Made by a program: the position numbers and the translations under genes. 64,000 nt of DNA from a phage: the NCBI GenBank assembly GCA_014435945.1, contig GCA_014435945.1_4088.1; one strand, 5' to 3'. The notes under the pieces are model-generated. The model was given only the letters and a program-made list of their open reading frames with translations. It was not told the DNA's origin and did no database searches. This document shows positions 20,221-54,963 of this stretch, one piece after another. Numbering within the stretch: the first letter of the stretch is position 1; each line of letters opens with the position of its first letter.

Positions 20221-20287
20221 TTACATGTATTGACAGTACTACCATAGTGTAGTACTATAACTTAATATTCACCACCGGAGATACGAT

Positions 20288-20626
20288 ATGCTTGAGTTTT
20301 TTAATTCAGATACAATGCTTAGTATTACTTTGATTTATCTGTTTGGTTTTTTCTTTTATCATGCACTAGTTGTAGTACTATGGTATTTTAAAAAGAAAAT
20401 CGTTTTCAAACTGTATCCTGATGGAAACATTTCACTACTTCTTTTCACTATTATCCAAGGTATGTTTGCAATTGTTGGTCTTATCGCACACTTAATTTAT
20501 TGTGCTAATCCACAGTTGAACTCAATATCACAATATATTGTATTCCTTGGATTACTAATTTGGGTGCTGATATACTTGTTTAATCTCATCATCAATGGTA
20601 GAGCAAAAATTCGTGGGGACTTCTAA
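20288..20626 (+). CDS. small multi-pass membrane protein, family M
   Basis: Hydrophobic composition; tandem paralog run. Confidence 0.5.
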   Translation: MLEFFNSDTMLSITLIYLFGFFFYHALVVVLWYFKKKIVFKLYPDGNISLLLFTIIQGMFAIVGLIAHLIYCANPQLNSISQYIVFLGLLIWVLIYLFNLIINGRAKIRGDF

Positions 20627-20973
20627 TGTTTGAATCTTATCTTGAGTTTTTAAAGAGTAGTTCTGTTGCACATTCAATTGCAGGGATTATTCTAACAGGT
20701 TATGTAACATTTTGGGTAGTTATGTTTCTAGGATGGTATTTTAAACGACAATTCTATAAGCGTAATGGTGAAGATTTTATGAATTCTTTCATTAATCAAT
20801 CGTTGTTTGCATCAACATTGATAGCATCTATTGTAGCAACACTCACTGGAAAGGTACTGCCAGCATTCTCCGCAGTTTACGGTACATTGGGTATGATATG
20901 TGTAGTTTTTTACTTGATCATTAAACTTTGTTGTGTTATGATTGACCTTCGAAACAAGATACCGGAGGAATGA
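20626..20973 (+). CDS. small multi-pass membrane protein, family M
   Basis: C-terminus LRNKIPEE; overlapping start/stop. Confidence 0.5.
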   Translation: MFESYLEFLKSSSVAHSIAGIILTGYVTFWVVMFLGWYFKRQFYKRNGEDFMNSFINQSLFASTLIASIVATLTGKVLPAFSAVYGTLGMICVVFYLIIKLCCVMIDLRNKIPEE

Positions 20974-21308
20974 TGGAATATTTTTTACACTTACTGCCGT
21001 GGTATATGAAAGTTAGTACTATGTACTATATTCTTAGTGCTGGATTCTACTTTCTGATGTGGTTCTTCAAACGACCAATTTCAGTATTCATCTCTGATAA
21101 CATGCTGCAATTAAAATTACACGCATGGTTTGGTATGGCGATGATTATGCCAATTATTCACTACTCAATGATTAGTAGAGGGTTCCGTTCCAATGGTGAA
21201 CCAATTGTATTAGTATTCTATTGGGGTTCAACTATTGCATATGTAAGTTTGTTGTTGTTCCCAGTCGTTCATAAATTACGTGCTAAAGTTCCTGATGCGA
21301 GGTACTAA
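20970..21308 (+). CDS. small multi-pass membrane protein, family M
   Basis: C-terminus LRAKVPDARY. Confidence 0.5.
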   Translation: MMEYFLHLLPWYMKVSTMYYILSAGFYFLMWFFKRPISVFISDNMLQLKLHAWFGMAMIMPIIHYSMISRGFRSNGEPIVLVFYWGSTIAYVSLLLFPVVHKLRAKVPDARY

Positions 21309-21622
21309 TGGATATCGTAACATTGATTTACACGCTTTATTCATTCTATTTTATTATGTGTTGGGTTGGATTTTTATTTGTATTGAAGATGTTTGATTAT
21401 GTTGAAAAACAGATAAAAGAATTTTGTATTCCTTTTATTGGGTCAACCATAATTAGTATTACTTGTTTGTATTATTTGGTATGTGATCCACCTGTTAATA
21501 CAGCAATGATTGACTTCATGTTATTACCAACAACTGTTATTTTTTTATGTAGTCTGATGCCACCGATTAGTCGTGGGCTAACCGAATTTAGACGCAATCA
21601 AAAGCGTAAACGAGGGATGTGA
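21308..21622 (+). CDS. small multi-pass membrane protein, family M
   Basis: Hydrophobic; basic C-terminus. Confidence 0.5.
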   Translation: MDIVTLIYTLYSFYFIMCWVGFLFVLKMFDYVEKQIKEFCIPFIGSTIISITCLYYLVCDPPVNTAMIDFMLLPTTVIFLCSLMPPISRGLTEFRRNQKRKRGM

Positions 21623-21990
21623 TGGAAATTACACTTATTATATTAACTGCTATGTTGTTTATTAGTACAATTGTTATTATTGGCAAGTTCTTCTGTGTAT
21701 CCTTCTTGGAAACCGTATACGATGAAATTGCTGATGATTATGAATTACATGCGGGATTTTTTACTACGTATTGGATTAGTTTATTACTACTTATCACTGT
21801 ATGGATTTTACATATATTCAAATGGGGTATGGTAGATGGTGATCCAGTACTGGCAATTATCTGTGTAGTGTTTGGTCTACTCGGTGGTGCTGTCCATAAT
21901 CTGATGGTAATTTGGCAAACCGTACAATATGTATTAGTTCCACATTTTCAGAGAATGCACCAAAGCATCAAATACCGCAAACGAGGATAA
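21619..21990 (+). CDS. small multi-pass membrane protein, family M
   Basis: Hydrophobic; basic C-terminus. Confidence 0.5.
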   Translation: MMEITLIILTAMLFISTIVIIGKFFCVSFLETVYDEIADDYELHAGFFTTYWISLLLLITVWILHIFKWGMVDGDPVLAIICVVFGLLGGAVHNLMVIWQTVQYVLVPHFQRMHQSIKYRKRG

Positions 21991-21991
21991 C

Positions 21992-22354
21992 ATGAATAAT
22001 ATTGAATTATCTTTTATTGGTCAATTAATGGTAATGGCGTATACATTTATCTTCTCACTGAATGCATTCGTGTGCATTGGGAAGTACTTCCATAAGCGAC
22101 CATTATCAAATATATATGATGTAATACAAAGGAGATATAGCCCAGCATATACTGTGTTGAGTACAGCATTCAATTTTGGTTTTATTCTAATGCTGGTTGC
22201 ATTATTAACATCGAGTTTAAATTTTATAACATTTGGTATTATGGTATGTTCACTAACACTGAGTGTGGTTATTCTCTGTGCATCCGTTGAGTTGATGGCG
22301 TGGATGTATTATAAGATTTCCGAAATCCATGACCGTTTAGGTAAGAGGAACTAA
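21992..22354 (+). CDS. small multi-pass membrane protein, family M
   Basis: Hydrophobic; basic C-terminus. Confidence 0.5.
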   Translation: MNNIELSFIGQLMVMAYTFIFSLNAFVCIGKYFHKRPLSNIYDVIQRRYSPAYTVLSTAFNFGFILMLVALLTSSLNFITFGIMVCSLTLSVVILCASVELMAWMYYKISEIHDRLGKRN

Positions 22355-22355
22355 A

Positions 22356-22727
22356 ATGAGTTATCGTGAAATATTTTCGATCATTACTATTATTGTTTTT
22401 AGTTTAGGTTCTTTGGTGTGGTTATTGTATTACTTCTGTGTAACCCCAGTATATAATATGCTAAATTCAGTACGCTCTGATGTTGGTATTGTTTCTTTTA
22501 TTATCTTCATGGCATATTATATGCTAAGTATCACAGGTTTGGTTTTGGTTGTTATCTTTGACCTTGGACCGAATCAAGATGGTATGGAGGTGTGGGAATT
22601 GATAACGATGTTTGCATGTATGATACCTGCATTTGGTGTATGTGCTGGTGTATTTTATGGGTTATGTAAAGGTGTGAACTACTTAAAAAATATCCACAAT
22701 ACTATTCGTAAAAAACGTATGTTATAA
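22356..22727 (+). CDS. small multi-pass membrane protein, family M
   Basis: Hydrophobic; basic C-terminus. Confidence 0.5.
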   Translation: MSYREIFSIITIIVFSLGSLVWLLYYFCVTPVYNMLNSVRSDVGIVSFIIFMAYYMLSITGLVLVVIFDLGPNQDGMEVWELITMFACMIPAFGVCAGVFYGLCKGVNYLKNIHNTIRKKRML

Positions 22728-22762: not shown

Positions 22763-23887
22763 TTAATTATCTAAGCCACCAATTACACTGAACTGTGTGG
22801 TAACGTCTGAACTATTATCTATGTAAGTTCTTCTACCAACATAATATAGTTGTCCTTTTGCTTGTATAAAAGTTACTGTCCCTGTATTGAATGTTATAAT
22901 ATCATTGTATGTAATGTCAGGTGGTAGTGCTGCTGATAACGCAGTAACTTTACTTAATGCAGCACTAGTACTACCATTTATACCAGCAGCAATACTACCA
23001 GTACCATAGAACTTATTATCTTTACCAATGAATACGTTGGCTGATGCTTGTGTAGCTGATGTTATTGCCTTACCAATTTGGAATGCGGTTCCTATGGTGT
23101 ATGGTGTGCTCCTGGCTGCGTCTATGCTTTGTGTATATCCATCCCCTAGCTGACCATTAACTTTGTCACCACATGAGTATAGAGTACCATTGAGGCTGTA
23201 TATGATCCCACGGTTAGAGAAGCTAACAGCTTCTGCATTAGTCCATACTGGTGCGGTGTATGAGTTTACACGACTAGCGGTAGTTCCTAGACCTAGTATA
23301 CCATATGTGTTATCACCACATCCAAACCATTGCCCAGAACTGTTTTGATAGAACACTGAACGTTCTGTTGATTCCATGCGTACAGCATCCACAGCACCAC
23401 TTTTAACGAACGAAGTGGATGAGGATGTAGTACCAGTACCCAATGCACCATAAGTGTTTGTACCAATCGCATAGATTGATCCTAGTGGTGTCATAACACG
23501 TATGCAGTTATATCCCAATTGAACTTTACATTCAAATAGGTTGTCCCATATTTCAGGAACAGCAGAAAATAAATTTGTAATTTCGAACCATGATGTTGTC
23601 GAACCAGTTAATCCTATACTGCTTTTGTTTCCTAAAATGAAAACAGTTTTGTCCTTCTTAATTATCCATGATGATAGGAAACCTATCTCACAGCTATGAA
23701 CATTTGATTCTATTTGGGTAATATAATACTTAACTGTGTTATCACCCATGAATGCCGCAGCACCGGATGCAAAAAGGTTTCCAGTTTGTTTATTTAAAAT
23801 GTAGTTATTGTTTCCATATACTCTAACATCATAAGAACTTTCTTGTTTTTCGTTCCCATAATCAAATAACAATACGAAAGGTAACAT
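22763..23887 (-). CDS. RCC1-like repeat protein, array member 17 (divergent leader MLPFVLLFDYGN)
   Basis: Repeated G-x-N-x-x-GQLG-x-G-like motifs; paralog of array. Confidence 0.7.
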   Translation of the reverse strand: MLPFVLLFDYGNEKQESSYDVRVYGNNNYILNKQTGNLFASGAAAFMGDNTVKYYITQIESNVHSCEIGFLSSWIIKKDKTVFILGNKSSIGLTGSTTSWFEITNLFSAVPEIWDNLFECKVQLGYNCIRVMTPLGSIYAIGTNTYGALGTGTTSSSTSFVKSGAVDAVRMESTERSVFYQNSSGQWFGCGDNTYGILGLGTTASRVNSYTAPVWTNAEAVSFSNRGIIYSLNGTLYSCGDKVNGQLGDGYTQSIDAARSTPYTIGTAFQIGKAITSATQASANVFIGKDNKFYGTGSIAAGINGSTSAALSKVTALSAALPPDITYNDIITFNTGTVTFIQAKGQLYYVGRRTYIDNSSDVTTQFSVIGGLDN

Positions 23888-23964
23888 GATAAAATCTCCT
23901 TGTGTTATACTTTATTTAATCATTTTATAATGTACAATTTTACAGCGATTTAATTGAGGTACTC

Positions 23965-24615
23965 ATGAATAAAAGAAGTAAGTTCTATCAAGAATATTTC
24001 ACTAAACAGAAACGATTCACAAAAAAATACTTTACATCATCCCACCGACCAGTTGCAAGTTACAAACGTCCTAATACTAACTATCTTACTGGTGGCAAGT
24101 TTAGTGCAAAGTTCGAATTACTTATGCGTGAAAAGAATATCAAGATGCATTACGCAGAGACGAGAAAAAACTCATCAATTATTTGCTCTGATTTTCTTGA
24201 GTACGGTTGCTTAACTTATAAATTCAACGATGTATATTTGTATATTGATGTTGATTGTAACAGTACTCGTATGTTTGAGATTTCAATTCACCCAAATCAC
24301 AACCGTTATATAAACATTAACTTGGTTGATAAAGTACTGATTGGTATATCTAGTACTGATGGTGGTGGATTTGAATTTATTGCTTCAAAATATGATGAAG
24401 ATTTCGTACTTTACCCAGTACTTGATGATGTGAAAGATATTCTCAATTCATTAAAAGGAAGTCAATACAAATTATCTGAAGAACAGCTATTCCAGTACTC
24501 ACTTATTCATGATGATATCGAGATATACTTAGAGTGTGCGAGAATCTTGGAGTATCTTTATAATGAACTAACAACAACTGGTAAAGTGACTGCATTCACA
24601 TTATATAATATGTAA
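23965..24615 (+). CDS. hypothetical basic protein (216 aa), opposite strand, embedded inside the RCC1-like array
   Basis: ORF track; SD GAGG; TATAAT upstream. Confidence 0.5.
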   Translation: MNKRSKFYQEYFTKQKRFTKKYFTSSHRPVASYKRPNTNYLTGGKFSAKFELLMREKNIKMHYAETRKNSSIICSDFLEYGCLTYKFNDVYLYIDVDCNSTRMFEISIHPNHNRYININLVDKVLIGISSTDGGGFEFIASKYDEDFVLYPVLDDVKDILNSLKGSQYKLSEEQLFQYSLIHDDIEIYLECARILEYLYNELTTTGKVTAFTLYNM

Positions 24616-24622
24616 AAGAAAA

Positions 24623-24641
24623 GCCAGTACATAGTACTGGC
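24623..24641. terminator. bidirectional terminator hairpin GCCAGTAC-ata-GTACTGGC
   Basis: Inverted repeat between convergent genes. Confidence 0.55.
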
Positions 24642-25784: not shown

Positions 25785-25856
25785 AATTCCCTCCTTTATT
25801 CATTATACTATATTTAATCAAAAAAGAAAAGCCAGTACTCAAGTACTGGCATTATT
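25785..25856 (-). promoter_or_regulatory. array intergenic cassette: hairpin terminator (25831-25850), T-run, TATAAT, AAGGAGG SD
   Basis: Near-identical sequence recurs between array genes. Confidence 0.65.
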
Positions 25857-30500: not shown

Positions 30501-30571
30501 ATTTCCCTCCTTTATTCATTATACTATATTTAATACAAATAAGAAAGCCAGTATCAAGTACTGGCCTATAT
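30501..30571 (-). promoter_or_regulatory. array intergenic cassette (hairpin 30546-30564, TATAAT, AAGGAGG)
   Basis: Seen directly. Confidence 0.65.
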
Positions 30572-31741: not shown

Positions 31742-31811
31742 ATTTCCTCCTTTATTCATTATACTATATTTAATCAAAAAGAAAAGCCAGTATCAAGTAC
31801 TGGCATTATTG
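31742..31811 (-). promoter_or_regulatory. array intergenic cassette (hairpin 31786-31804)
   Basis: Seen directly. Confidence 0.65.
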
Positions 31812-33002: not shown

Positions 33003-33073
33003 ATTTTCCTCCTTTATTCATTATACTATATTTAACCAAAAAGAAAAGCCAGTGCTCAAGTACTGGAGTAATG
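33003..33073 (-). promoter_or_regulatory. array intergenic cassette (hairpin 33049-33066)
   Basis: Seen directly. Confidence 0.65.
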
Positions 33074-34216: not shown

Positions 34217-34281
34217 AATTCCCTCCTTTATTCATTATACTATATTTAATACAAATAAGAATGCCAGTATCAAGTACTGGC
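34217..34281 (-). promoter_or_regulatory. array intergenic cassette; hairpin 34263-34281 overlaps last codons of upstream gene
   Basis: Seen directly. Confidence 0.6.
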
Positions 34282-35466
34282 ATTAATTGTTGGGAGTGGG
34301 AATTCTTTCATGACAGATGAACTACTTGCTGAAATATTATCAGGAGATTTCCCCGCGTAGTATAATTTATTATTAATGTACATATACAACGTTGCATCGT
34401 TCCCTGCTACAAGGGATTCACTTTTCTTAAAGTTAACACCAGCAGGTAAAATTGCTTCAACAAATGATCCTGAATCGCGTGTGGTATTATTTGCTAACTG
34501 ACCATTGTTATTATAACCAGTACTATAAATTTTACCTGAACTATAATATACAAGACCACGTGTACTAGTGTTTTCTATTCGAATGAATTCACTATCATCT
34601 GGGACTGTAGTTGATAGTACTGCGTTTAACCTATAAGCAGTTGATACATTATTATTGCCCAGTTGTCCATAACCTTGAAAACCTAGTGCATACATAGGAC
34701 ATGATTCTGGTGATGTTGGTGTTCCTTTTGTTATAATACCAATATAATTCGCACTACAAAAAATATCTACTGCTTCTACAACAGGTGTACCCTTATATTG
34801 AACCCAAGGGAATACATACGATTGTTGTCTGCCATCTGCCAAAGTACCAGAAGATGTTGTTCCTGTACGCCACATTGTATCATCAAGTTTAATAATCCAG
34901 TTAGCTGATGTAATTGATGAACAGAATTTTTTAACATTATCTACTACAAATGTAAATCTATTATAATATGATGCCGTGTTTATACCAAACTTAGCACCAG
35001 TATTATCACCTAACACATATAAACTATTATCAGTTCCTAAAATCACAGCATAATTATAACCTACGTATATCTCTTTAATTCTTGAAATTCCAAATTGTGT
35101 AAAATAGCTTGTACATTCAGTGAATGTTGTTACATTATTGGTGGTATTATTACCCAGCCAAGTATCCAAACCACTATAAAAGAATCTATCATCATTAGTG
35201 CGTATTAGACAAAAAGCGTTCATAGTACTGCACCAAAAATCTTTAACATTGCTATATATTTTTGTCCATTCAGTTACTTGATTAGTATGACCTAAACCAA
35301 AAATTCCACCATTCTGAAGACCCATAGCCCATACTGAACCATTTACATCAAGTAGCATTGTACATGTATATGAATAACCACCCGATGGGGTGACTAATTT
35401 AGTAAAATTTGGTACATATGGAATGACTACATTCCCGTACTTAACCATTCTTGCAAAAGGTAACAT
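34270..35466 (-). CDS. RCC1-like repeat protein, array member 8 (MLPFARMVKYGN)
   Basis: As above. Confidence 0.75.
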   Translation of the reverse strand: MLPFARMVKYGNVVIPYVPNFTKLVTPSGGYSYTCTMLLDVNGSVWAMGLQNGGIFGLGHTNQVTEWTKIYSNVKDFWCSTMNAFCLIRTNDDRFFYSGLDTWLGNNTTNNVTTFTECTSYFTQFGISRIKEIYVGYNYAVILGTDNSLYVLGDNTGAKFGINTASYYNRFTFVVDNVKKFCSSITSANWIIKLDDTMWRTGTTSSGTLADGRQQSYVFPWVQYKGTPVVEAVDIFCSANYIGIITKGTPTSPESCPMYALGFQGYGQLGNNNVSTAYRLNAVLSTTVPDDSEFIRIENTSTRGLVYYSSGKIYSTGYNNNGQLANNTTRDSGSFVEAILPAGVNFKKSESLVAGNDATLYMYINNKLYYAGKSPDNISASSSSVMKEFPLPTINAST

Positions 35467-35537
35467 ATTTCCCTCCTTTATTCATTATACTATATTTAAT
35501 TCAAAAAGAAAAGCCAGTATCAAGTACTGGCATTATG
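35467..35537 (-). promoter_or_regulatory. array intergenic cassette (hairpin 35513-35531)
   Basis: Seen directly. Confidence 0.65.
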
Positions 35538-37788: not shown

Positions 37789-37803
37789 AACTAAAATCTC
37801 CAT

Positions 37804-37863
37804 ATAATAATTATAATGTATTTACAAAAAAATACCAGTACGTATTTCAGTACTGGTATAATG
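37804..37863 (-). promoter_or_regulatory. array intergenic cassette variant (hairpin ACCAGTAC..GTACTGGT, TATAAT, GGAG)
   Basis: Seen directly. Confidence 0.55.
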
Positions 37864-39045: not shown

Positions 39046-39118
39046 AATAAAATCTCCGTAATTAAATTATATAGTATTTACAAAAAATACCAGTACATAT
39101 TTCAGTACTGACCTATTA
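39046..39118 (-). promoter_or_regulatory. array intergenic cassette variant
   Basis: Seen directly. Confidence 0.55.
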
Positions 39119-41443: not shown

Positions 41444-41513
41444 ATTTCCCTCCTTTATTCATTATACTATATTTAATCAAAAATAAATGCCAGTACACAG
41501 TACTGGCATAATA
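41444..41513 (-). promoter_or_regulatory. array intergenic cassette (hairpin 41489-41507)
   Basis: Seen directly. Confidence 0.65.
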
Positions 41514-42692: not shown

Positions 42693-42764
42693 ATTTCCCT
42701 CCTTTATTCATTATACTATATTTAATCAAAAATAAAAGCCAGTACTCTGTACTGGCATATTAAT
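42693..42764 (-). promoter_or_regulatory. array intergenic cassette (hairpin 42738-42756)
   Basis: Seen directly. Confidence 0.65.
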
Positions 42765-43913
42765 TCATTGTATAAATGACATATCTACTTCTGTATAATT
42801 AAGAACGTTCTGTCCAGAAATACCACCCATTACTACTATTGCAATGCCACAATAATATAATTTTCCAGTATCCGTAAGTATAAGTGAACCAGATGGACTG
42901 CGTACCAAATTACACGAAGTATTAAACGAAGTATATGAAGGAGTATAGGAGTACTGATTATTATTATTACCAACACCTAATTGCCCAAACCCATTCGATC
43001 CAGAAGCATATAGAACTTCATCTGCTTTGACAATATGTGATGCCATGTTACCAACACAAGTATATAGAGTATAAACTCCTGAACTCAATAATGTCGGAGT
43101 TTTATATTGTATATCTGTAGATGTAGAAGTACCACCTGTACCAAATTCGTTCCCATATTGTGCACCGAACTGTTTACCACAAGCGTACAAATTATTATCC
43201 GATTTGATAAAAAATGTACTCTGATAACTTACATTAAAATCTATAACATCCGAAGAAATCATCGTCACCCCAGTAATAGAAGTTTGATTACCCGTGCCCA
43301 ACTGGTAGTAATAGTTAAAACCACAACCCCATAAAGTATTATCTTCTCGCAAATAAATGTTACCAACTGCCTTTTTAACCGAAGTTATAGTATCTACTCT
43401 TTTGAATGTGTTAAAAGAATTAATGTTTGTGCCATCACCAAATGATGATATGTTCGATATATTGTTAGCTCCACAACAATACAATGTACCATCGTTTGTT
43501 ATCAAATTCACCTTCATATCATAAAAACTACTCATGTATTTTATATCAGAAACATTAATACCACTTGATGTTATCCACGTAGTACAGTCCGTCCACAAAG
43601 TTTTTCTATCAGTTACACCAGTGAATGCCTTCGTGTTACCAGTGATAAAAACTTTTCCAGTACCTTTCTCTTCATACAATTGACAATCACTACTGTTATC
43701 TTCCAATAGAACTCGTTTAACATTCTCCGCACAAAGAATAAATTTACTCGATGCTACACCTGTACCAGTACCCCAATTCGTCGCAGAAGATGCATACAAC
43801 TTATCAGTATAAGTATCATGAAGATACATAGAATCACTGGAATATATTTTAAAACGCCCTTCTTTCTCAGGTATAATATTCCCATAATCAAACATTCTAA
43901 CAAAAGGTAACAT
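42765..43913 (-). CDS. RCC1-like repeat protein, array member 1 (MLPFVRMFDYGN); track start 43931 is translated SD region
   Basis: Start at conserved MLPF codon. Confidence 0.75.
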   Translation of the reverse strand: MLPFVRMFDYGNIIPEKEGRFKIYSSDSMYLHDTYTDKLYASSATNWGTGTGVASSKFILCAENVKRVLLEDNSSDCQLYEEKGTGKVFITGNTKAFTGVTDRKTLWTDCTTWITSSGINVSDIKYMSSFYDMKVNLITNDGTLYCCGANNISNISSFGDGTNINSFNTFKRVDTITSVKKAVGNIYLREDNTLWGCGFNYYYQLGTGNQTSITGVTMISSDVIDFNVSYQSTFFIKSDNNLYACGKQFGAQYGNEFGTGGTSTSTDIQYKTPTLLSSGVYTLYTCVGNMASHIVKADEVLYASGSNGFGQLGVGNNNNQYSYTPSYTSFNTSCNLVRSPSGSLILTDTGKLYYCGIAIVVMGGISGQNVLNYTEVDMSFIQ

Positions 43914-44015
43914 ATTTCCTCCTTTATTCATTATATCATATTTACCCCATAAACAAAACCCTTGACATCCTTTCAGTACTGGTGTACTATAGAAGGAATA
44001 TAAGGAGAACTGTAC
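43914..44015. promoter_or_regulatory. divergent promoter region: -10/SD cassette for the minus array and TTGACA-N17-TACTAT plus AAGGAG for the + strand mini-gene array
   Basis: cccttgacatcctttcagtactggtgtactat on + strand; TATAATGAATAAAGGAGG on - strand. Confidence 0.55.
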
Positions 44016-44243
44016 ATGACAACTACACTTAAGTACTACCTCAATACTCTAAATGAACTAGAGTACGCGAAGTTTCTCGCGGATAGTTCGTGGCTAATTG
44101 AGCTAAAAACACATAACAGTACTGGATGTAACCTTATGCTGAACAATGCACTTGATACCCTTGTAGTGAGTATTTTACACAGCAACATCTGCGGGGATAG
44201 CAATAAACAATTATCAAAAATCTTAGTACTGGTAGCTCTATGA
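44016..44243 (+). CDS. mini-protein family S member
   Basis: ORF track; SD AAGGAG. Confidence 0.5.
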   Translation: MTTTLKYYLNTLNELEYAKFLADSSWLIELKTHNSTGCNLMLNNALDTLVVSILHSNICGDSNKQLSKILVLVAL

Positions 44244-44452
44244 ACACTATGAACATTGAACAGTACTACATTGATGCACTACCAACAAAAGGTCTACGAG
44301 AAAGCCTACTGTATACACAAAATAATTATATAAACCTCAAACATTGTCCTAAACTCTTGAACTCGTACAGGAATAATAAAATAAGAAATGCTGTACAAGG
44401 GGTAGAAAGTATGCAATACTATTACATCCTAACCCTTTTAATCGAACACTAA
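44240..44452 (+). CDS. mini-protein family S member (N-terminal ..QYYIDALP, Tyr/Leu-rich C-terminus)
   Basis: ORF track; tandem paralogs. Confidence 0.5.
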   Translation: MNTMNIEQYYIDALPTKGLRESLLYTQNNYINLKHCPKLLNSYRNNKIRNAVQGVESMQYYYILTLLIEH

Positions 44453-44453
44453 T

Positions 44454-44639
44454 ATGTATAAAGAATTCTACTGTAGTAAGCTGCACAAACAATACAGAGA
44501 TTCATTTCCCAATGAACCTATGGATATGAATAGTCCCTTTTATAAATTTGACTTCAGACTGGAGACACGTTATGCAATAGAACATCAATTTCCTGAAACT
44601 AAGTACTTATCTATCATGAACCTCATCTTTAAGTTCTAA
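44454..44639 (+). CDS. mini-protein family S member
   Basis: ORF track. Confidence 0.45.
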   Translation: MYKEFYCSKLHKQYRDSFPNEPMDMNSPFYKFDFRLETRYAIEHQFPETKYLSIMNLIFKF

Positions 44640-44650
44640 AAGAGTACTAT

Positions 44651-44863
44651 ATGAAAACTATGAACATACACCAGTACTACTTAGATATTCTCCCTAAAGA
44701 TGTACAGTTCATCCTTAAACAAGAATACAGTACTTTAAAAAACCTTAAAAGAACCGCACCGAATGTATTAATCCTGCACCAAGAAAATGTAGTTGATAAT
44801 ATTCTACAAGGTGTACCAGGGACCGAGTACTTTAACATAATAAGGCTAATTACATTACCATGA
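44651..44863 (+). CDS. mini-protein family S member
   Basis: ORF track. Confidence 0.5.
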   Translation: MKTMNIHQYYLDILPKDVQFILKQEYSTLKNLKRTAPNVLILHQENVVDNILQGVPGTEYFNIIRLITLP

Positions 44864-45045
44864 ATCATATATTATACTATTACCAAAATCTATCCGACAG
44901 GGACAAGTACACCCACAACTCCAATGTATGGTACTACAAACGCGGTAGTATAAGAGACAAACAACATTACTTCTGTATTGCTATAAAAGAAGCACTAACA
45001 ACTAAGTACACGTACAGAGCAGTACTGAAACTTATTGATATGTAA
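44860..45045 (+). CDS. mini-protein family S member
   Basis: ORF track. Confidence 0.5.
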   Translation: MNHILYYYQNLSDRDKYTHNSNVWYYKRGSIRDKQHYFCIAIKEALTTKYTYRAVLKLIDM

Positions 45046-45055
45046 AGAGAATACT

Positions 45056-45238
45056 ATGAGCATTGAATTGTACTTAAGTAAATTACAGCCTGGCGATAGA
45101 TTCATCTACAATAAGTTCGAATTCAACTACAAGAACGGGAGCAACAAATATCGTCGAGGATACCTATATACAAGCACAAGAGATGCACAAAACGAAAAGT
45201 ACACATACAGAGAAGTACTTAAACTAATCTCTATTTGA
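45056..45238 (+). CDS. mini-protein family S member (C-terminus YTYREVLKLISI)
   Basis: ATG after upstream stop. Confidence 0.5.
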   Translation: MSIELYLSKLQPGDRFIYNKFEFNYKNGSNKYRRGYLYTSTRDAQNEKYTYREVLKLISI

Positions 45239-45246
45239 GGTAATAT

Positions 45247-45432
45247 ATGAACACATTTGAGTACTATACAAATAAACTATCTATGCCTGAAAGATCTCAT
45301 CTCTATGTGTGGAGAAATGCGTATAAAAGCGGCAATAAACTTATACAAAGAAATTCCCTTACAGTGTGTACAAATTTAATTAAAGCAGAGTACCGCACAT
45401 ATATTGAAGTACTCAAACTGATAGCAATATAA
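45247..45432 (+). CDS. mini-protein family S member
   Basis: ORF track. Confidence 0.5.
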   Translation: MNTFEYYTNKLSMPERSHLYVWRNAYKSGNKLIQRNSLTVCTNLIKAEYRTYIEVLKLIAI

Positions 45433-45440
45433 GGTACTCT

Positions 45441-45620
45441 ATGCAAGAATTCTATATCTATAACCTCCAGCACAAAGATAGATACAACTATAATAAATTC
45501 CAAAGGTACTACACAGTCGGGAACAAAAGAGATAAAAAACGTTATCTACTCTCGTGTACAGTAGAAGCACAAAACGAAAAGTACAGGTACAGAGAAGTAC
45601 TTAAACTAATCTCAATCTAA
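45441..45620 (+). CDS. mini-protein family S member (59 aa, missed by 60-aa cutoff)
   Basis: Read manually; MQEFYIYNL...YRYREVLKLISI. Confidence 0.5.
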   Translation: MQEFYIYNLQHKDRYNYNKFQRYYTVGNKRDKKRYLLSCTVEAQNEKYRYREVLKLISI

Positions 45621-45627
45621 GGTAGAC

Positions 45628-45816
45628 ATGAACACTTTTGAGTACTACTTCAATAAACTAAACCACATAGAACAAAGTATGCACAACTCATTTATTCAGC
45701 ACCATCAATCATCTGCATCTGGAATTAAAAATATATCGATTGAGATTATAACTACCCGTGTACTGTCATCTGAACGTTATATGTATATTGATGTACTGAA
45801 ACTCATCTCTATGTAA
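45628..45816 (+). CDS. mini-protein family S member
   Basis: ORF track. Confidence 0.5.
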   Translation: MNTFEYYFNKLNHIEQSMHNSFIQHHQSSASGIKNISIEIITTRVLSSERYMYIDVLKLISM

Positions 45817-45824
45817 GGAATAAT

Positions 45825-46004
45825 ATGCAAGAATACTATATAGAACACATAAACATTAAAGACCGTTTCATGTACGACACCTTCGTGAAGTACTACAACC
45901 TGGCAACTAACAGTACTAAAAATATTAATCTCAATAGCTGCATTCATCACGCACTAACAAAAGATAATCCCTTCAGGGAAATCCTCGCTCTCGCATCTGT
46001 ATAA
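45825..46004 (+). CDS. mini-protein family S member (59 aa, missed by cutoff)
   Basis: Read manually; MQEYYIEHI... Confidence 0.45.
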   Translation: MQEYYIEHINIKDRFMYDTFVKYYNLATNSTKNINLNSCIHHALTKDNPFREILALASV

Positions 46005-46014
46005 AGGAAACCAA

Positions 46015-46674
46015 ATGAAACTTAATGCACACAGCAAACAATACCTTAAGCACTTTAAGTACCTCAACAGTATTCAAGCAGAATCTTTTACATCTGCATA
46101 TACGTATCACCCAAATGTACTAAAGAAACGAAATAAAAAGAAAAAATCCAGAAATGTTCTCGTATCTAAGAACCTCAAATCGTACTTGAAGAAAAATAAT
46201 ATAGCTCTTGCTTTTATTAATATCTATAATACTGATTTAAAAGTATTGAGTACTAATACCAGCACAAAAGCACTAAAGAATGCATCTATCTATATACACA
46301 TGGATAATATCCCGTGTACTATAATTCTATCTTTCGGGAATGTATACTTCTTCGGGAATTGTAATAGCACCCATGATATCAGTACTGCACAATTCCAAAT
46401 CGGAGATATGTACTGCATGGGTTCAGAAAAAATACACGATAACATGCACTTCTTCCAAAAGCAACGTACTAACGAAACTGATACAGTACTGCAATTCCTC
46501 AAAGAACTACAAAACAAAGAATTAACACCAGAAGAAGAATTCATGTACAGTACTGTAATCGATAATCCAGAACTCTATAAAAACGCGTACAAACTAACAA
46601 AACATGTACAGGAACTTATCAGTACTGATAAGAAATTTCATAACCTCATTACGTATATTACAAACTATGTATAA
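46015..46674 (+). CDS. hypothetical protein (219 aa) interrupting the mini-gene array
   Basis: ORF track. Confidence 0.5.
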   Translation: MKLNAHSKQYLKHFKYLNSIQAESFTSAYTYHPNVLKKRNKKKKSRNVLVSKNLKSYLKKNNIALAFINIYNTDLKVLSTNTSTKALKNASIYIHMDNIPCTIILSFGNVYFFGNCNSTHDISTAQFQIGDMYCMGSEKIHDNMHFFQKQRTNETDTVLQFLKELQNKELTPEEEFMYSTVIDNPELYKNAYKLTKHVQELISTDKKFHNLITYITNYV

Positions 46675-46849
46675 AGAATACTACAAAGATAAAATCCCAA
46701 TGCATCTACAACACCATATACCAAACGTTGCATTGGGTATCAAAGATCACACAAAGATAATGTTCCAACAATGTACTAAGTACACGCTCATATACGATGA
46801 TAATCCATATATGCTGTACTACGTAGTAATGCTAACATTCAGGTACTAA
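46667..46849 (+). CDS. mini-protein family S member (MYKEYYKDKIP...)
   Basis: ATG overlapping upstream stop. Confidence 0.5.
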   Translation: MYKEYYKDKIPMHLQHHIPNVALGIKDHTKIMFQQCTKYTLIYDDNPYMLYYVVMLTFRY

Positions 46850-46850
46850 T

Positions 46851-47030
46851 ATGCACAAATATAAAGAATTCTACCTCTCGTACCTTAATTCCGATATAGT
46901 AACATCCAATACATTCAGTACTAAAATTATCTATAATGAAGTAATGAAAGAATGTATTAAAGGTGCTATTAACCCTAAAGATACGTATGACTTGTACTAT
47001 GCAGTACTAACCCTTGTTTTCACGAAATAA
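46851..47030 (+). CDS. mini-protein family S member (59 aa, missed by cutoff)
   Basis: Read manually; MHKYKEFYLSYL... Confidence 0.5.
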   Translation: MHKYKEFYLSYLNSDIVTSNTFSTKIIYNEVMKECIKGAINPKDTYDLYYAVLTLVFTK

Positions 47031-47038
47031 CACATAAT

Positions 47039-47230
47039 ATGAATAACCACAAAGAATACTACATAGAGAAACTCCCAATGTATCTACAACACCTTGTACC
47101 AACAGAACCATTGCGTATAGAAAAAGACTACGAAAAAGACTATTTCATTAAGTGCACTAAATCCTCGATAGATATTGAGGACTATAATAGAGTACTGTAT
47201 CACATCCTTTTACTAATATATAAGTACTAA
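47039..47230 (+). CDS. mini-protein family S member (MNNHKEYYIEKLP...)
   Basis: ORF track. Confidence 0.55.
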   Translation: MNNHKEYYIEKLPMYLQHLVPTEPLRIEKDYEKDYFIKCTKSSIDIEDYNRVLYHILLLIYKY

Positions 47231-47240
47231 AGAGAACAAT

Positions 47241-47429
47241 ATGAATAACCACAAAGAATACTACACACAATTTCTCCCCAGCATTTTTGAACACTACGCC
47301 AGATATAAAGTCCCCCTGGATAACGATTTGGCAGTACTGGGATTCAATAATTGCATAGAACGCAGTATAGAAAATAGTAGTAGCTATGACCAATTATATA
47401 ACACTATCCTACTTATATTCAGGTACTAA
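47241..47429 (+). CDS. mini-protein family S member
   Basis: ORF track. Confidence 0.55.
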   Translation: MNNHKEYYTQFLPSIFEHYARYKVPLDNDLAVLGFNNCIERSIENSSSYDQLYNTILLIFRY

Positions 47430-47430
47430 T

Positions 47431-47619
47431 ATGCATAAAGAATACTACACAAAATATTTCCCAATGTACCTCAGTACTAATCTATTAGATAAACCTCGCG
47501 GTATCAATGCACAAAACGATAAAGTGTACTTTACTATGTGCACTAAAGCATGTATACTAGATTTTGATAGCTATCATCGAGTACTATACCACACTCTGTA
47601 CCTCGCGTTCGTGTACTAA
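47431..47619 (+). CDS. mini-protein family S member (MHKEYYTKYFP...)
   Basis: ATG immediately after upstream stop. Confidence 0.55.
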   Translation: MHKEYYTKYFPMYLSTNLLDKPRGINAQNDKVYFTMCTKACILDFDSYHRVLYHTLYLAFVY

Positions 47620-47629
47620 AGAGGCCAAT

Positions 47630-47836
47630 ATGAACGAACAGAAAGAATTTTACACCAAATACCTCAGCAACGAAGAACAATTGTTTCTAAGGAGTGTATC
47701 ACCTTTAAGTTTAGATACACCACACGCCAGACATTGCTTTAATAATTGTATACGTAGTACTCTAGAAGCTTTAGAAAACAATAACAAAAAGATTCAGTAC
47801 TCAGGTGTAATAGGACTAATATTCTTCTATGAATAA
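47630..47836 (+). CDS. mini-protein family S member (MNEQKEFYTKYL...)
   Basis: Internal ATG of track ORF. Confidence 0.55.
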   Translation: MNEQKEFYTKYLSNEEQLFLRSVSPLSLDTPHARHCFNNCIRSTLEALENNNKKIQYSGVIGLIFFYE

Positions 47837-48008
47837 CTATAAAGAATTCTACATAAGCCATCTGGATATAAACTCCCAAATGCTTATACCACTAAAACCA
47901 ATAGATTTCAAGGATAAGAAAAATACCCAACAATTTATTGACCATACTGACTGTGCGGTGAACCAAAATTATATGTACTACATTCTCGCCCTAATATACA
48001 GGTACTAA
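47829..48008 (+). CDS. mini-protein family S member (59 aa, missed by cutoff)
   Basis: Read manually; MNNYKEFYISHL... Confidence 0.5.
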   Translation: MNNYKEFYISHLDINSQMLIPLKPIDFKDKKNTQQFIDHTDCAVNQNYMYYILALIYRY

Positions 48009-48009
48009 T

Positions 48010-48195
48010 ATGCATAGAGAATACTACACACAATTTGTTAAAGGGAACTACAAACACGCCGTCCCCGTAAACCCCTTAAATTCTAATGACCCAAGTACTA
48101 TATTCTTGTTCCATGACGCAATACGTACAGTACTCAATACTAAAGATGAACAGGTGCAGTACGTATTCTTACTTTTACTTATATACAGACACTAA
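48010..48195 (+). CDS. mini-protein family S member
   Basis: ORF track. Confidence 0.55.
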   Translation: MHREYYTQFVKGNYKHAVPVNPLNSNDPSTIFLFHDAIRTVLNTKDEQVQYVFLLLLIYRH

Positions 48196-48200
48196 CTAAT

Positions 48201-48410
48201 ATGAATAATGAACATAAAGAATTCTATTCCAAACACCTCAGCCAATCAGAACAAATGTTTCTAAGGACTACACCACCTTTAAGTACTAATACATATTTCG
48301 GCAGAGTATGCTACAATAATTGTATTCAAATGACTTTAAACGCAAACGCCAATGGTAACAGTACTAACCTGTACTCAGGCATCATAGGTATACTATTTCT
48401 ATATGAATAA
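48201..48410 (+). CDS. mini-protein family S member
   Basis: ORF track. Confidence 0.55.
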   Translation: MNNEHKEFYSKHLSQSEQMFLRTTPPLSTNTYFGRVCYNNCIQMTLNANANGNSTNLYSGIIGILFLYE

Positions 48411-48585
48411 AGAACATAAAGACTTCTATATAAGAAAACTAACATTCGTCCCCGTAAGAATATACAAAGAATGCGACCCAAGATTATACCTATGGCACTT
48501 CAATGAGTGCATAAAAGATTCTATATACCCTAAGAACTATAAAGAACAATTGATCTCAGTACTAACACTAGTACTATCATATTAA
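48403..48585 (+). CDS. mini-protein family S member
   Basis: ORF track; ATGA overlap. Confidence 0.55.
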   Translation: MNKEHKDFYIRKLTFVPVRIYKECDPRLYLWHFNECIKDSIYPKNYKEQLISVLTLVLSY

Positions 48586-48598
48586 TAGAGATAATACT

Positions 48599-48781
48599 AT
48601 GTATAAAGACTTCTATATAAGTAAACTAAAAGAAAACGAACAAGCATGGGTTAACAATTTAATCCCCTTGGCAATGACTCAATACGAATTTAATATGTGT
48701 ACAAAGATTGTTTTAACTACTAATGATATCTCTAATACGTACTACTTCCTAGTAAGAGTACTATATGGTACTTTGAAATAA
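48599..48781 (+). CDS. mini-protein family S member
   Basis: ORF track. Confidence 0.5.
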   Translation: MYKDFYISKLKENEQAWVNNLIPLAMTQYEFNMCTKIVLTTNDISNTYYFLVRVLYGTLK

Positions 48782-48792
48782 TAAGGTATACT

Positions 48793-48999
48793 ATGCAGAA
48801 CATAAAAAATTATAAAGAGTACTATATAAGTAAACTACCACCGACTGACCAAGCATGGATTAGATCTATAATAGTACTTGCATTTAATAGATATGCATTT
48901 AACAGATGTACCGAGATTGCTATAGACCCTTATAATATTAAAGAGAATGTACAGCATAATCAGTACTACTATATGTTAATGCTTATATATAGGAAGTAA
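48793..48999 (+). CDS. mini-protein family S member
   Basis: ORF track. Confidence 0.55.
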   Translation: MQNIKNYKEYYISKLPPTDQAWIRSIIVLAFNRYAFNRCTEIAIDPYNIKENVQHNQYYYMLMLIYRK

Positions 49000-49124
49000 T
49001 TCAACATATAGACAGGGGAAGCTCCGCAGGGAAAGCATTGGACAGGCTTTAACATATGTTATATATGTTAAAATTCAGCCTGGACAAATGCGATCACTAG
49101 GATTCTCCCCAGGCTAAACCCCGT

Positions 49125-49410
49125 AATCATATGTAGTCATAAGTAATCATATATAAACATTTAAGTAATCATTTATAATCACAGTAGTGATCAGTAGTGA
49201 GTACTAGAGTGTAATAGAGTGTAATAGAGTACAGGAATGTGCACGTTTAATCAAGAACGTAGCAGTACTGCCCCAAAAGTATTCAGTACTGAAGGTGTCG
49301 ATATGCCACTAAGTAGGCAGAGGAAGTCTGCCGTACTTTGTAGTTTCCAAGCTCCTTTTCCATTTTGCAAATTACATCAAATGTAATCAAAAGTAATCAC
49401 GCAATGATTA
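49125..49410. repeat. cluster of short direct repeats (GTAATCA about 6 times; AGTGTAATAGAGT twice)
   Basis: Read directly in ORF-free region. Confidence 0.5.
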
Positions 49411-50029: not shown

Positions 50030-50225
50030 GACGGATTTTGGGCGTAGTTACCCTGGGTGGATTTTGGACGTAGATATGTCTAGCCCTCCAGAAGTCTGGA
50101 AGTAAAGATGGCTATCCATCTAGACGGCTAAACGGCTAGATTTCTAGATGGCTGTATGGCTAGACGTTTGGACGGCTAAACGGCTAGATGGTTACACGTC
50201 TGGATGTATAGACGGCTAAATCAAA
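50030..50225. repeat. iteron-like direct repeats: GACGGCTAAACGGCTAGAT twice (50123-50141, 50171-50189), partial copy at 50211, and GGATTTTGG(G/A)CGTAG twice
   Basis: Read directly. Confidence 0.6.
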
Positions 50226-52369: not shown

Positions 52370-52639
52370 GCAGTTTACAAATCTTTACAATTGCCAGTAT
52401 TGACTTATTTTGTCAGTACTGGCATAATGTATTCATTGGCAGATAAGCCGTAGCCCATAGGGTGCGGAAGTGTATCTATAGAAAAAGTAGTTTAGTACAG
52501 TTACAATTGTGCACCCGGTGGGTTAGCTGTTGTCATGGGGTATATTATACCAGTACTGGATAGTGCTGTCAATACTTTTTTTACTATTCAGTACTGAAAA
52601 ACTATTTGATAAAAAGTACTTGCAAACTATGTTTAAAGG

Positions 52640-54720: not shown

Positions 54721-54963
54721 CAACGCGGGGAGATAATAACTCCCCGTTACTTTTTCAGTACTGAATCATTTAATAGACGGATCTCGGCACCCGGTGGGTT
54801 AGTGACTGTTTCGTCTTGATGTAGTAATTATGCCAGTACTGGATGCACTTGTCAACAATTATTTTCCAAATACTTTTTATTAAAATACTTGCTATTAGTT
54901 TTTAAACGCGTATAATGTTTTGCATAGGGGGAGCGGTTCCCCTGGTAACTAAGGAATAAGAAA

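Follow-up and report, generated by a model that had tools for sequence, protein, structure and literature searches.

The window analysed here, a stretch of 64,000 nucleotides, belongs to Asteriusvirus (Rak2-like jumbo coliphages), and contains two gene arrays that diverge from an intergenic spacer of 102 bp. The 4 kb around the spacer are 97.6% identical to Escherichia phage Turkey3, and the same stretch is 89-97% identical in about 35 further Asteriusvirus genomes, including 121Q, PBECO4 and phAPEC6. All of these are Rak2-like jumbo myoviruses with genomes of about 350 kb.

To the left of the spacer lie 17 RCC1-like genes, all on the minus strand (22763-43913), which we number R01 to R17 starting from the spacer. 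Against the RCC1 repeat PF00415 (cutoff 21.7 bits), R01, R05 and R17 scored 35.6, 25.3 and 50.2 bits, and the RCC1-like protein matched PHROG 4219 at 6e-110. Multiple copies of RCC1-like genes were already known in Rak2-like phages (PMC5259590; PMC7247149), and 11 copies have been reported in phAPEC6 and 13 in 121Q. The proteins encoded by the paralogs show a mean identity of 21.6% and a maximum of 35%, and all 17 genes share their first codons (peptide MLPF(V/A)RM...). An (L/I)xE site of the prohead-protease type after this N-terminus is found in R01 (IPE) and is absent from the other paralogs, so that a cleavable targeting peptide is not supported on this criterion. R16 and R17 are separated by a gene on the plus strand (23965-24615, PHROG 34359). 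Beyond R17, paralogy of seven genes of ~115 aa (20288-22727) was considered and left unconfirmed, at 12-29% identity.

To the right of the spacer, the plus-strand mini-genes fall into two families of paralogs, with 15 and 6 members, and into singletons, among them the first gene and a 219-aa ORF. The array matches PHROG 11711, and a search of IMG/VR with mini-gene 1 returned 121Q only; relatives were drawn from the phage records of GenBank. The array stops ~300 bp short of position 49313, from which point the window is terminal repeat by homology with phage fEgEco12; the direct terminal repeats of the latter, 20,993 bp long, were determined by PhageTerm and restriction digests (PMC13070987). 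The right edge of the 22.8-49.0 kb island formed by both arrays coincides with this boundary. Cumulative GC skew peaks near 22-24 kb and is lowest near 49-50 kb, where the terminal repeat begins; neither extreme falls at 43.9 kb, and a replication origin or skew switch at the spacer was rejected.

The length of the spacer depends on the start assigned to R01. The true start on the minus strand is ATG 43913, preceded by GGAGG (43922-43918). A start at 43931, which would give the longest ORF, lacks a Shine-Dalgarno sequence and was rejected; the annotators of Turkey3, fEgEco12, phAPEC6 and SP27 chose the equivalent of 43913, and the GenBank start calls in these four genomes yield an identical 102-bp spacer. 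Coordinates are collected in Table 1.

Table 1. Features of the divergent region, the RCC1-like array and the mini-gene array (window coordinates; a dot in the strand column means that no strand is assigned).
Feature	Position	Strand	Remarks
Divergent intergenic spacer, 102 bp	43914..44015	.	Sequence; GenBank annotation of relatives; conserved island in 11 genomes
R01, first RCC1-like gene, 382 aa	42765..43913	-	Ortholog in phAPEC6 (gp549) found in virions
First 13 codons, conserved (MLPFVRMFDYGN...)	43875..43913	-	About 83% nucleotide identity among all 17 paralogs
Shine-Dalgarno GGAGG of R01	43918..43922	-	Sequence
Leftward element TAAATA-TGA-TATAAT (TAAATA 43944-43939, TATAAT 43935-43930)	43930..43944	-	First copy of the RCC1 unit cassette; exact motif match
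A-rich tract TAAACAAAACCC, UP-element-like, 5' of -35	43950..43961	+	Indels tolerated
-35 hexamer TTGACA, rightward promoter	43962..43967	+	6/6 match; invariant in 11/11 genomes
CAGTACTG palindrome within the promoter spacer	43974..43981	.	AGTACT starts at -22
-10 hexamer TACTAT, 17 nt 3' of -35	43985..43990	+	4/6 match, including A2 and T6
Shine-Dalgarno AAGGAG, 8 nt 5' of ATG 44016	44002..44007	+	Invariant in relatives
24 tightly packed small ORFs	44016..48999	+	Gaps of at most 13 nt, or overlaps
Match to fEgEco12 nucleotide 1 (physical genome end, start of ~21-kb direct terminal repeat)	49313	.	Homology
Module R01>R02	42693..42764	-	Terminator-like hairpin 42756-42738, T-run, TAAATATAGTATAAT (42724-42710), GGAGGG
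Module R02>R03	41444..41513	-	Terminator-like hairpin 41509-41487, cassette 41475-41461
Module R04>R05	39046..39118	-	Terminator-like hairpin 39112-39089, variant cassette TAAATACTATATAAT (39080-39066)
Module R05>R06	37789..37863	-	Terminator-like hairpin 37859-37832, variant cassette TAAATACATTATAAT (37824-37810)
Module R07>R08	35467..35537	-	Terminator-like hairpin 35531-35513, cassette 35498-35484
Module R08>R09	34217..34284	-	Terminator-like hairpin 34284-34260 (overlaps R08 end), cassette 34248-34234
Module R09>R10	33003..33073	-	Terminator-like hairpin 33066-33049, cassette 33034-33020
Module R10>R11	31742..31811	-	Terminator-like hairpin 31804-31786, cassette 31772-31758
Module R11>R12	30501..30571	-	Terminator-like hairpin 30567-30545, cassette 30532-30518
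Module R15>R16	25785..25856	-	Terminator-like hairpin 25850-25831, cassette 25816-25802
Terminator-like hairpin after R16	24623..24641	-	Followed by degenerate cassette remnant 24614-24600
Variant cassette TAAATAAAGTATAAC upstream of R17	23904..23918	-
R17, last RCC1-like gene	22763..23887	-	Preceded by variant cassette

A first-pass annotation of the sequence had described a spacer of this size with a -10/Shine-Dalgarno cassette on the minus strand and TTGACA-N17-TACTAT plus AAGGAG on the plus strand. Direct reading of the sequence located every one of these motifs: TATAAT and GGAGG are present on the minus strand, and the plus-strand motifs make up a credible sigma70-type promoter facing the mini-genes. 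The outward geometry likewise holds, as the RCC1-like genes and the mini-genes do diverge from the spacer. The leftward -10 and the rightward -35 are separated by 26 bp, and the two core promoters lie on opposite strands without overlapping. An Rfam scan of the whole window gave nothing at gathering thresholds, and no known RNA element thus accounts for the spacer. A second plus-strand candidate, TTTAAA-18-TATAAT at 43848-43877 inside R01, was set aside because it is conserved only in the closest relatives.

Counting both strands, the 64-kb window has 5 exact matches to TTGACA-N17-TAnnAT where 0.69 would be expected, and the chance of finding one on this strand of this spacer is ~4e-4. Loose matches (at least 9/12) are not enriched in the window (43 versus 51.9 expected); in DNA this rich in A and T, loose consensus matching is uninformative. 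With a position weight matrix (PWM) trained on 23 strong promoters from the window, the rightward site scored 2.9 bits, a value reached by ~45 sites per 64 kb of simulated sequence, so that the matrix did not separate the site from chance. The matrix mixes two promoter subclasses and was therefore dropped in favour of exact-pattern rarity and conservation. Dozens of sigma70-type promoters precede small genes in the window, chiefly at 1-20 kb and 49.6-64 kb, and the spacer promoter shares their style (A-tract, consensus -35) but has a weaker -10. Its A-tract is the complement of a T-run relic in the leftward cassette, which reads GGGTTTTGTTTAT in the spacer and GGCTTTTCTTTTT in internal copies.

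The rightward promoter occupies the only gap longer than 13 nt ahead of the 24 mini-genes. Between 44.0 and 49.0 kb no plus-strand terminator-like site was found, and the sole site with a promoter match of at least 10/12 (48845-48872) lies inside a gene. The tight packing of the genes and the lack of a convincing internal promoter or terminator make a mini-gene operon of ~5 kb plausible, and one promoter serving one such operon would be the economical reading. The rightward arm would then be an early-type promoter for host sigma70 (A-tract, TTGACA, 17 nt, TACTAT); transcription is predicted to start near 43997, which would leave a ~19-nt leader carrying AAGGAG, and would most likely yield one polycistronic mRNA of ~5 kb directed towards the terminal-repeat boundary.

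The leftward arm is of a different kind. Its TAAATA-N3-TATAAT motif has 12 exact matches in the window, all of them on the minus strand and directly upstream of RCC1 units; with at most one mismatch, the count is 16 against 3.3 expected. When the 110 nt upstream of each RCC1 gene were compared, TAAATA-N3-TATAAT, GGAGG and a conserved N-terminus of 12 codons were found together before 12 of the 17 genes. A copy with one mismatch (TATAAC) precedes R17; of the 13 copies in the window, 12 have a perfect TATAAT. No cassette has lost the 15-mer, not even those that have diverged and have an altered Shine-Dalgarno distance. Matches to TGNTATAAT are also in excess (24 in the window versus 9.05 expected), and the corresponding chance for the spacer is ~0.007. 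The cassette has no recognizable -35: the sequence at that position is CTTTTC, a 1/6 match, and sigma70 -35/-10 pairs are not enriched inside the RCC1 array (88 versus 99.6 expected). In the spacer copy, TGA precedes TATAAT, thus forming an extended -10 (TGATATAAT), whereas the 9 canonical internal copies all read TAGTATAAT, without TG. Nucleotide identity among paralogs is about 83-86% across the cassette and the first 13 codons, and drops to ~35% immediately after.

Internal cassettes do not stand alone. A near-identical module of ~70 nt precedes 8 internal RCC1 genes, and a diverged variant precedes R05 and R06, which makes ten hairpin-plus-cassette modules of about 70-75 nt each. In these modules a hairpin (GCCAGTAC-loop-GTACTGGC) is followed by a broken T-run, then by GATTAAATATAGTATAATGAATAAAGGAGGGAAAT and the start ATG TTA CCT TTT. 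The spacer copy is the only cassette lacking an upstream hairpin; it keeps the relic of the T-run. Altogether, 11 terminator-like hairpins were detected on the minus strand 3' of RCC1 units, 10 of them in gaps between RCC1 genes just before the next cassette and one after R16. Terminator-like sites on both strands of the RCC1 region amount to 25, compared with 8.8 ± 3.1 in shuffled sequences. The fold energies of the gap hairpins range from about -10 to -19 kcal/mol; their rating as terminators is based only on pattern and folding, and the T-runs that follow are interrupted (TTTTCTTTTT). Where an RCC1 gene lacks a module, 9-12 nt separate it from the gene before it, and R12-R15 look translationally coupled.

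A single operon should be free of internal terminators; none was found in the mini-gene array, and the RCC1 array has terminator-like hairpins between its genes. With a predicted terminator after nearly every unit, a transcript initiated in the spacer should rarely pass R01. The virion proteome of phAPEC6 bears on this point: gp003, gp005, gp006, gp007, gp009 and gp010, distal to the spacer, are found at peptide counts similar to those of the proximal gp549 and gp551. The gp003-gp010 range corresponds to distal RCC1 paralogs, and the RCC1-like protein gp1 of GAP32 is also in the virion proteome of that phage. The presence of distal paralogs in virions, together with the predicted internal terminators, implies that distal units need initiation of their own. 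The repeated cassettes and hairpins would therefore divide the RCC1 array into ~12 insulated units rather than one operon. The predicted units hold 1 to 4 genes each: R01, R02, R03-04, R05, R06-07, R08, R09, R10, R11, R12-15, R16 and R17. The leftward element of the spacer would drive R01 only, and the internal cassettes would follow an intrinsic terminator built on GCCAGTAC...GTACTGGC. The view that a single hub drives both arrays is thus plausible for the mini-gene arm and is not supported for the RCC1 arm, where 12 cassette copies and 11 hairpins are found. Treating the 22.8-49.0 kb island as one unit is not supported either, since the RCC1 array splits into ~12 units and the two arms are separable, as described below.

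The strongest support for the spacer motifs comes from their conservation. Among 11 Asteriusvirus genomes, mean pairwise identity is 87% in the spacer, against 55-58% in the body of the adjoining RCC1 gene and 76% in mini-gene 1. Compared with JNE01, the spacer is 81% identical and its flanks 36-43%. The near-invariant block runs from codon 13 of the RCC1 gene through the spacer to the Shine-Dalgarno sequence of the mini-gene. On one side of it, several of the 11 genomes have the body of a different RCC1 paralog; on the other, mini-gene 1 has diverged. Neither TTGACA nor the 17-nt spacing changes in any of the 11 genomes, and the rightward -10 varies at positions 3-4 only (TACTAT, TACAAT, TAGAAT), T1, A2, A5 and T6 being invariant. 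Indels are confined to the stretch between the arms (a 5-nt deletion in UE-S1 and a 1-nt deletion in Turkey5). The distance between arms thus differs among genomes, which indicates that there is no fixed phasing and counts against a single hub. In the Klebsiella phage fENko-Kae01, which belongs to a different genus cluster (~29% ANI to fEgEco12), the leftward element is present as gggTAAATAtgaTATAATga upstream of the first RCC1-like gene. This phage has no TTGACA promoter, and in the ~330 bp that separate its RCC1 start from its terminal repeat no mini-gene is annotated or evident. Persistence of the leftward element without the rightward promoter makes the two arms separable.

Altogether, we favour a reading in which the spacer holds two back-to-back, independent promoters, the RCC1 genes form ~12 units each led by a cassette, and the cassettes double as recombination substrates; we give this reading a probability of about 0.65. 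The spacer would thus be a real, conserved divergent control region containing two independent promoters and not one hub, so that the first-pass reading is supported in part. The motifs, their repetition and conservation, the hairpins, the unit indel described below and the occurrence of the proteins in virions of relatives are observations; we infer initiation and termination at the individual elements, the form of the polymerase and the timing of expression from the sequence.

What kind of promoter the cassette may be is a separate question. Most likely it acts as a -35-independent promoter, used in the middle or late phase of infection by a polymerase that the phage has modified, and a gp55-like late sigma is the favoured candidate. 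The two arms of the spacer probably belong to different temporal classes because the cassette lacks a -35 and resembles late promoters, and because RCC1-like proteins are components of the virions of phAPEC6 and GAP32. Late genes of phAPEC6 carry (T)ATAAATA, and two of them, gp231c and gp077 (AATAAATAcgtTATAAT), have TATAAT at a comparable distance after it; gp077 codes for a virion protein and is the sole non-RCC1 match to the 15-mer in the phAPEC6 loci (100 kb). The invariance of TAAATA, as opposed to TATAAT, and the persistence of the element in fENko-Kae01 also lean towards a phage-specific, probably late, class. A caveat is that the base preceding TAAATA is T or G in the cassette and A in 12 of 13 late promoters examined; the missing A indicates that the cassette is not a canonical late promoter.

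A serious rival is that the cassette is an ordinary host-sigma70 promoter without a -35, made of TATAAT and a T-rich upstream tract, in which case the RCC1 genes would be early or constitutive, in the same class as the rightward promoter. The perfect TATAAT of most copies fits sigma70 too, the spacer copy has the TGn of an extended -10, and the GTATAATG core is also found in strong early promoters of the phage. Several observations make this explanation less likely, however. Internal copies lack the TG. TAAATA does not vary in any copy, orthologous or paralogous, whereas TATAAT is replaced by TATAAC in JNE01, Turkey5 and R17 and by GATGAT in ph0011, with loss of the T that is most critical for sigma70. 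The RCC1 products are virion proteins, and no other early gene uses the 15-mer in the 164 kb surveyed, the only other match being the one that precedes gp077.

It is considerably less probable that the spacer is one bidirectional hub after all. Under this hypothesis the RCC1 array would be one long operon, the internal cassettes would serve only as ribosome-binding sites or in mRNA processing or stabilisation, and the hairpins would be leaky. The divergence of the arrays, the lack of an upstream hairpin in the spacer copy alone and the lack of a -35 in internal cassettes are all compatible with it. On the other hand, 11 hairpins with T-runs follow RCC1 units, 10 of them between units; a promoter-like 15-mer has been kept in every cassette, even where the distance to the Shine-Dalgarno sequence changes; distal paralogs are found in phAPEC6 virions at levels like those of proximal ones; and the plus-strand gene at 23965-24615 interrupts the array before R17. 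An equally improbable proposal, that neither arm is a working promoter and that the block is a recombination or gene-conversion tract with translation-initiation regions, transcribed from elsewhere, can draw on leftward terminal-repeat promoters at ~50317 and ~50659 as a possible entry, on the lack of a minus-strand terminator between 44 and 50 kb, on synonymous sites invariant in codons 2-4 of the 17 paralogs, on two N-terminal haplotypes shared by unrelated paralogs and on a unit indel with its junction within a cassette, but it conflicts with conservation that is motif-specific (hexamers and spacing kept, indels tolerated between arms), with internal terminators that would block incoming transcription, and with the fact that the mini-genes have no other gap able to hold a promoter.

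Exchange between units is nevertheless part of the reading we favour, that of independent promoters and cassette-led units. Turkey3 and the window differ by the insertion or deletion of one whole unit (gene plus cassette, ~1.18 kb), with the junction in the hairpin at 42738-42756. The paralog that abuts the spacer differs among genomes, and the breakpoints fall at the conserved N-terminal block. In addition, two N-terminal nucleotide haplotypes (MLPFVRMFDYGN and MLPFARMVKYGN) are common to otherwise unrelated paralogs. Near-identical cassettes would serve as substrates to add, delete or swap whole RCC1 units. Conversely, the near-identity of the cassettes could be caused by gene conversion rather than by function.

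A side observation concerns the palindrome that lies inside the rightward promoter. AGTACT occurs 266 times in the window, about 12-fold above the ~22 copies expected, and CAGTACTG occurs 58 times versus ~1 expected. Copies are found in all three codon frames, with ~2-fold enrichment in intergenic DNA. Their flanks are symmetric (consensus TTnCAGTACTGnAA), which argues that double-stranded DNA, and not RNA or protein, is what is constrained. Promoter copies keep a fixed phase: 11 start at -19 and 10 at -39. The motif also forms terminator stems. The excess extends to other regions, sampled in phAPEC6 (91 and 146 copies per 50 kb, 17 expected), and to fENko-Kae01 (22 copies in 3 kb). A comparison of conservation at individual AGTACT sites gave 84% versus 74%, and 93% versus 88%, a small difference in alignments contaminated by paralogous matches. 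The copy in the spacer starts 3 nt off the -19 register and has been lost in JNE01 and Turkey5 although both keep the -35 and the -10; hence, it is probably not essential to the rightward promoter, and may be a relic of the terminator arm that reads AGTACTGGC in internal cassettes.

No description of CAGTACTG or AGTACT in a phage context was found in the literature searched, and no candidate binding protein was found. A tentative interpretation, which we consider rather doubtful, is that the AGTACT dyad (TTnCAGTACTGnAA) is a genome-wide site for a dimeric phage or host factor across Rak2-like genera, in which case the spacer CAGTACTG would be one, probably vestigial, copy. If so, AGTACT, whose copies in early promoters lie at -39 and -19, two helical turns apart, could be a global switch (e.g., for shutting off early promoters) or a signal for self-marking or for the organisation of DNA, which would make it the phage equivalent of highly iterated palindromes such as HIP1 of cyanobacteria (GCGATCGC). 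Like HIP1, AGTACT is a short palindrome; its excess is shared by related genomes and affects every codon frame as well as intergenic DNA. Unlike HIP1, it is found in a phage, has another sequence, keeps a fixed phase in promoters and takes part in terminator stems, and no methyltransferase associated with it was identified here.

The corrected picture describes how a jumbo phage may run and reshuffle a large array of paralogs: each RCC1-like gene would travel with its own cassette of terminator, promoter, ribosome-binding site and N-terminus. Possession of a cassette by each unit would permit expression of distal copies, and would also account for differences in the number and order of copies among nearly identical phages (11 in phAPEC6, 13 in 121Q and 17 here). 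No Asteriusvirus transcript data or Rak2-like transcriptome was found in the literature searched; for annotators of a genus that has no transcript map, the predicted promoters and terminators and the terminal-repeat boundary can be used as landmarks.

Back-to-back pairs of divergent promoters are common in bacteria and phages, and the spacer itself is an ordinary divergent promoter region. Further pairs of this type exist in the window (e.g., at 52400-52572). In contrast with other divergent pairs, the spacer shows no sign of a shared operator or of fixed phasing.

The rightward arm can be compared with the RpoD-like early promoters of the Rak2-like phage CBB, which have UP-like elements and are clustered in the early region and the terminal repeat (PMC5259590). 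It has a consensus -35, 17-nt spacing and an A-rich tract, and precedes short hypothetical genes near the terminal repeat; phAPEC6 encodes an RpoD-like sigma (gp066c). However, its -10 (TACTAT) is weaker, and its AGTACT lies 3 nt off the -19 register seen in 11 other promoters of the window.

The leftward arm recalls the T4-type late promoter, TATAAATA, which is read by the gp55 sigma. The cassette lacks a -35, ends its A/T-rich element in TAAATA ~30 nt before the start codon and precedes genes for virion proteins; phAPEC6, moreover, encodes a gp55-like late sigma (gp237c). In Rak2-like phages, ATAAATA has been reported for CBB and GAP32 (PMC5259590). The cassette, however, retains only TAAATA of the TATAAATA or ATAAATA core: the two 5' bases of the octamer are TT or GG instead of TA, and a perfect sigma70-type TATAAT follows 3 nt after TAAATA.

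The closest analogue of the RCC1 cassette is the PeSL (promoter-early stem-loop), a composite terminator/promoter cassette of T4-like phages (Arbiol et al. 2010, PMC2839356; Comeau et al. 2014, PMC4122927). In both cases, short conserved modules made of a stem-loop and a promoter are repeated between variable genes, each of which is thereby insulated, and RCC1 modules are likewise found at indel and replacement junctions between close relatives. The window is also rich in true PeSL-like modules, which carry sigma70 hexamers (e.g., gggTTGACTtcggtcagcccTTTTTgcTATAAT). The differences are also clear. The RCC1 cassette contains TAAATA-N3-TATAAT without a -35 rather than a near-consensus sigma70 promoter; it runs through the Shine-Dalgarno sequence into 12 conserved codons; it flanks one family of virion-protein paralogs, whereas PeSLs flank unrelated early ORFans; and its host genome is that of a Rak2-like jumbo phage and not of a member of the Tevenvirinae. 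The notion of a mobile regulatory cassette, put forward for PeSLs, would thus extend past T4-like phages and past early sigma70 promoters.

All 17 RCC1-like paralogs begin with the same dodecapeptide, MLPF(V/A)RM(F/V)(D/K)YGN, encoded by the first 36 nt of each gene, and are only ~22% identical overall. Codons 2-4 are invariant in the 17 paralogs, synonymous sites included, and two discrete nucleotide haplotypes are found among the 36-nt segments. This pattern suggests gene conversion, a common signal (for instance, for virion targeting) or both.

The array also differs between phages. In Turkey3, which is 97.6% identical to the window, the orthologs of R01 and R02 (the first two RCC1-like genes counted leftward from the spacer) are separated by one additional RCC1 unit, a 1110-nt gene with its cassette; the junction of this indel falls inside the terminator hairpin. 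Within the phAPEC6 sequence surveyed (100 kb), a single TAAATA-N3-TATAAT match is not linked to an RCC1-like gene. It is located upstream of gp077, which encodes a virion protein of high abundance (10 peptides); the motif at this site, AATAAATAcgtTATAAT, contains the canonical late core.

In the mini-gene array, which lies on the plus strand, GC skew is negative (-0.13 to -0.20) and AT skew strongly positive (+0.20), a pattern that sets it apart from every other plus-strand gene block in the window. The variant found in the rightward promoter of the 43.9-kb spacer, TTGACA-N17-TACTAT, is also present ahead of seven abutting ORFs (~104-123 aa) that are convergent with the end of the RCC1 array. 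These seven ORFs could not be confirmed as paralogs (12-29% identity).

By alignment, nucleotide 1 of the related phage fEgEco12 corresponds to window position 49313; in fEgEco12 this nucleotide is an experimentally supported genome end, the start of a ~21-kb direct terminal repeat (PMC13070987). This position is flanked by six (G)TAATCA direct repeats, possible signals for packaging or for the terminase. In ORF-poor surroundings ~800 bp into the terminal repeat, ~14 tandem copies of the 8-nt unit AYGGCTAR were detected (e.g., ACGGCTAA, ACGGCTAG and ATGGCTAG); the run looks iteron-like.

Across the whole window, the palindrome AGTACT is found 266 times against ~22 expected, a ~12-fold excess, and CAGTACTG reaches 58 copies against ~1. 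Copies occur in every codon frame, with symmetric flanks (TTnCAGTACTGnAA); those in promoters are phase-locked at -39 and -19, and predicted terminator stems are built from the palindrome. Two other phages, phAPEC6 and Klebsiella phage fENko-Kae01, likewise show an excess of AGTACT. A literature search in the phage context yielded no prior description.

Coordinates of the features in the window and in related-phage sequences (L003, Turkey3; L016, phAPEC6; L011 and L015, further such sequences)
Feature	Window	Related sequence
RCC1-like genes	22763-43913	
RCC1-unit indel junction	42738-42756	L003 17700-19050
Non-RCC1 TAAATA-N3-TATAAT		L016 46429-46465
Mini-gene array	44000-49000	
TTGACA-N17-TACTAT	20230-20258	
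Seven-ORF block	20230-22727	
(G)TAATCA repeats	49123-49183, 49373-49399	
AYGGCTAR run	50108-50219	
AGTACT, example sites	739, 15530, 49691, 54435	also in L015, L016, L011
Divergent promoter pairs	52400-52572, 54800-54916	
Hairpin-embedded TTGACT, -35 starts	6462, 10056, 13066, 17362, 17945, 19392, 59978, 63637	

Two further back-to-back divergent promoter pairs were detected, both within the terminal repeat, and the arrangement at 43.9 kb is therefore not unique; in each arm of these pairs, CCAGTACTGG adjoins the -10. Successive small genes are preceded by compact terminator-promoter modules in which a -35 TTGACT lies within a GC-rich hairpin (pattern gggTTGACTtcggtcagccc TTTTTgc TATAAT). These modules are classic PeSL-like cassettes, resembling the composite terminator/promoter cassettes of T4-like phages.
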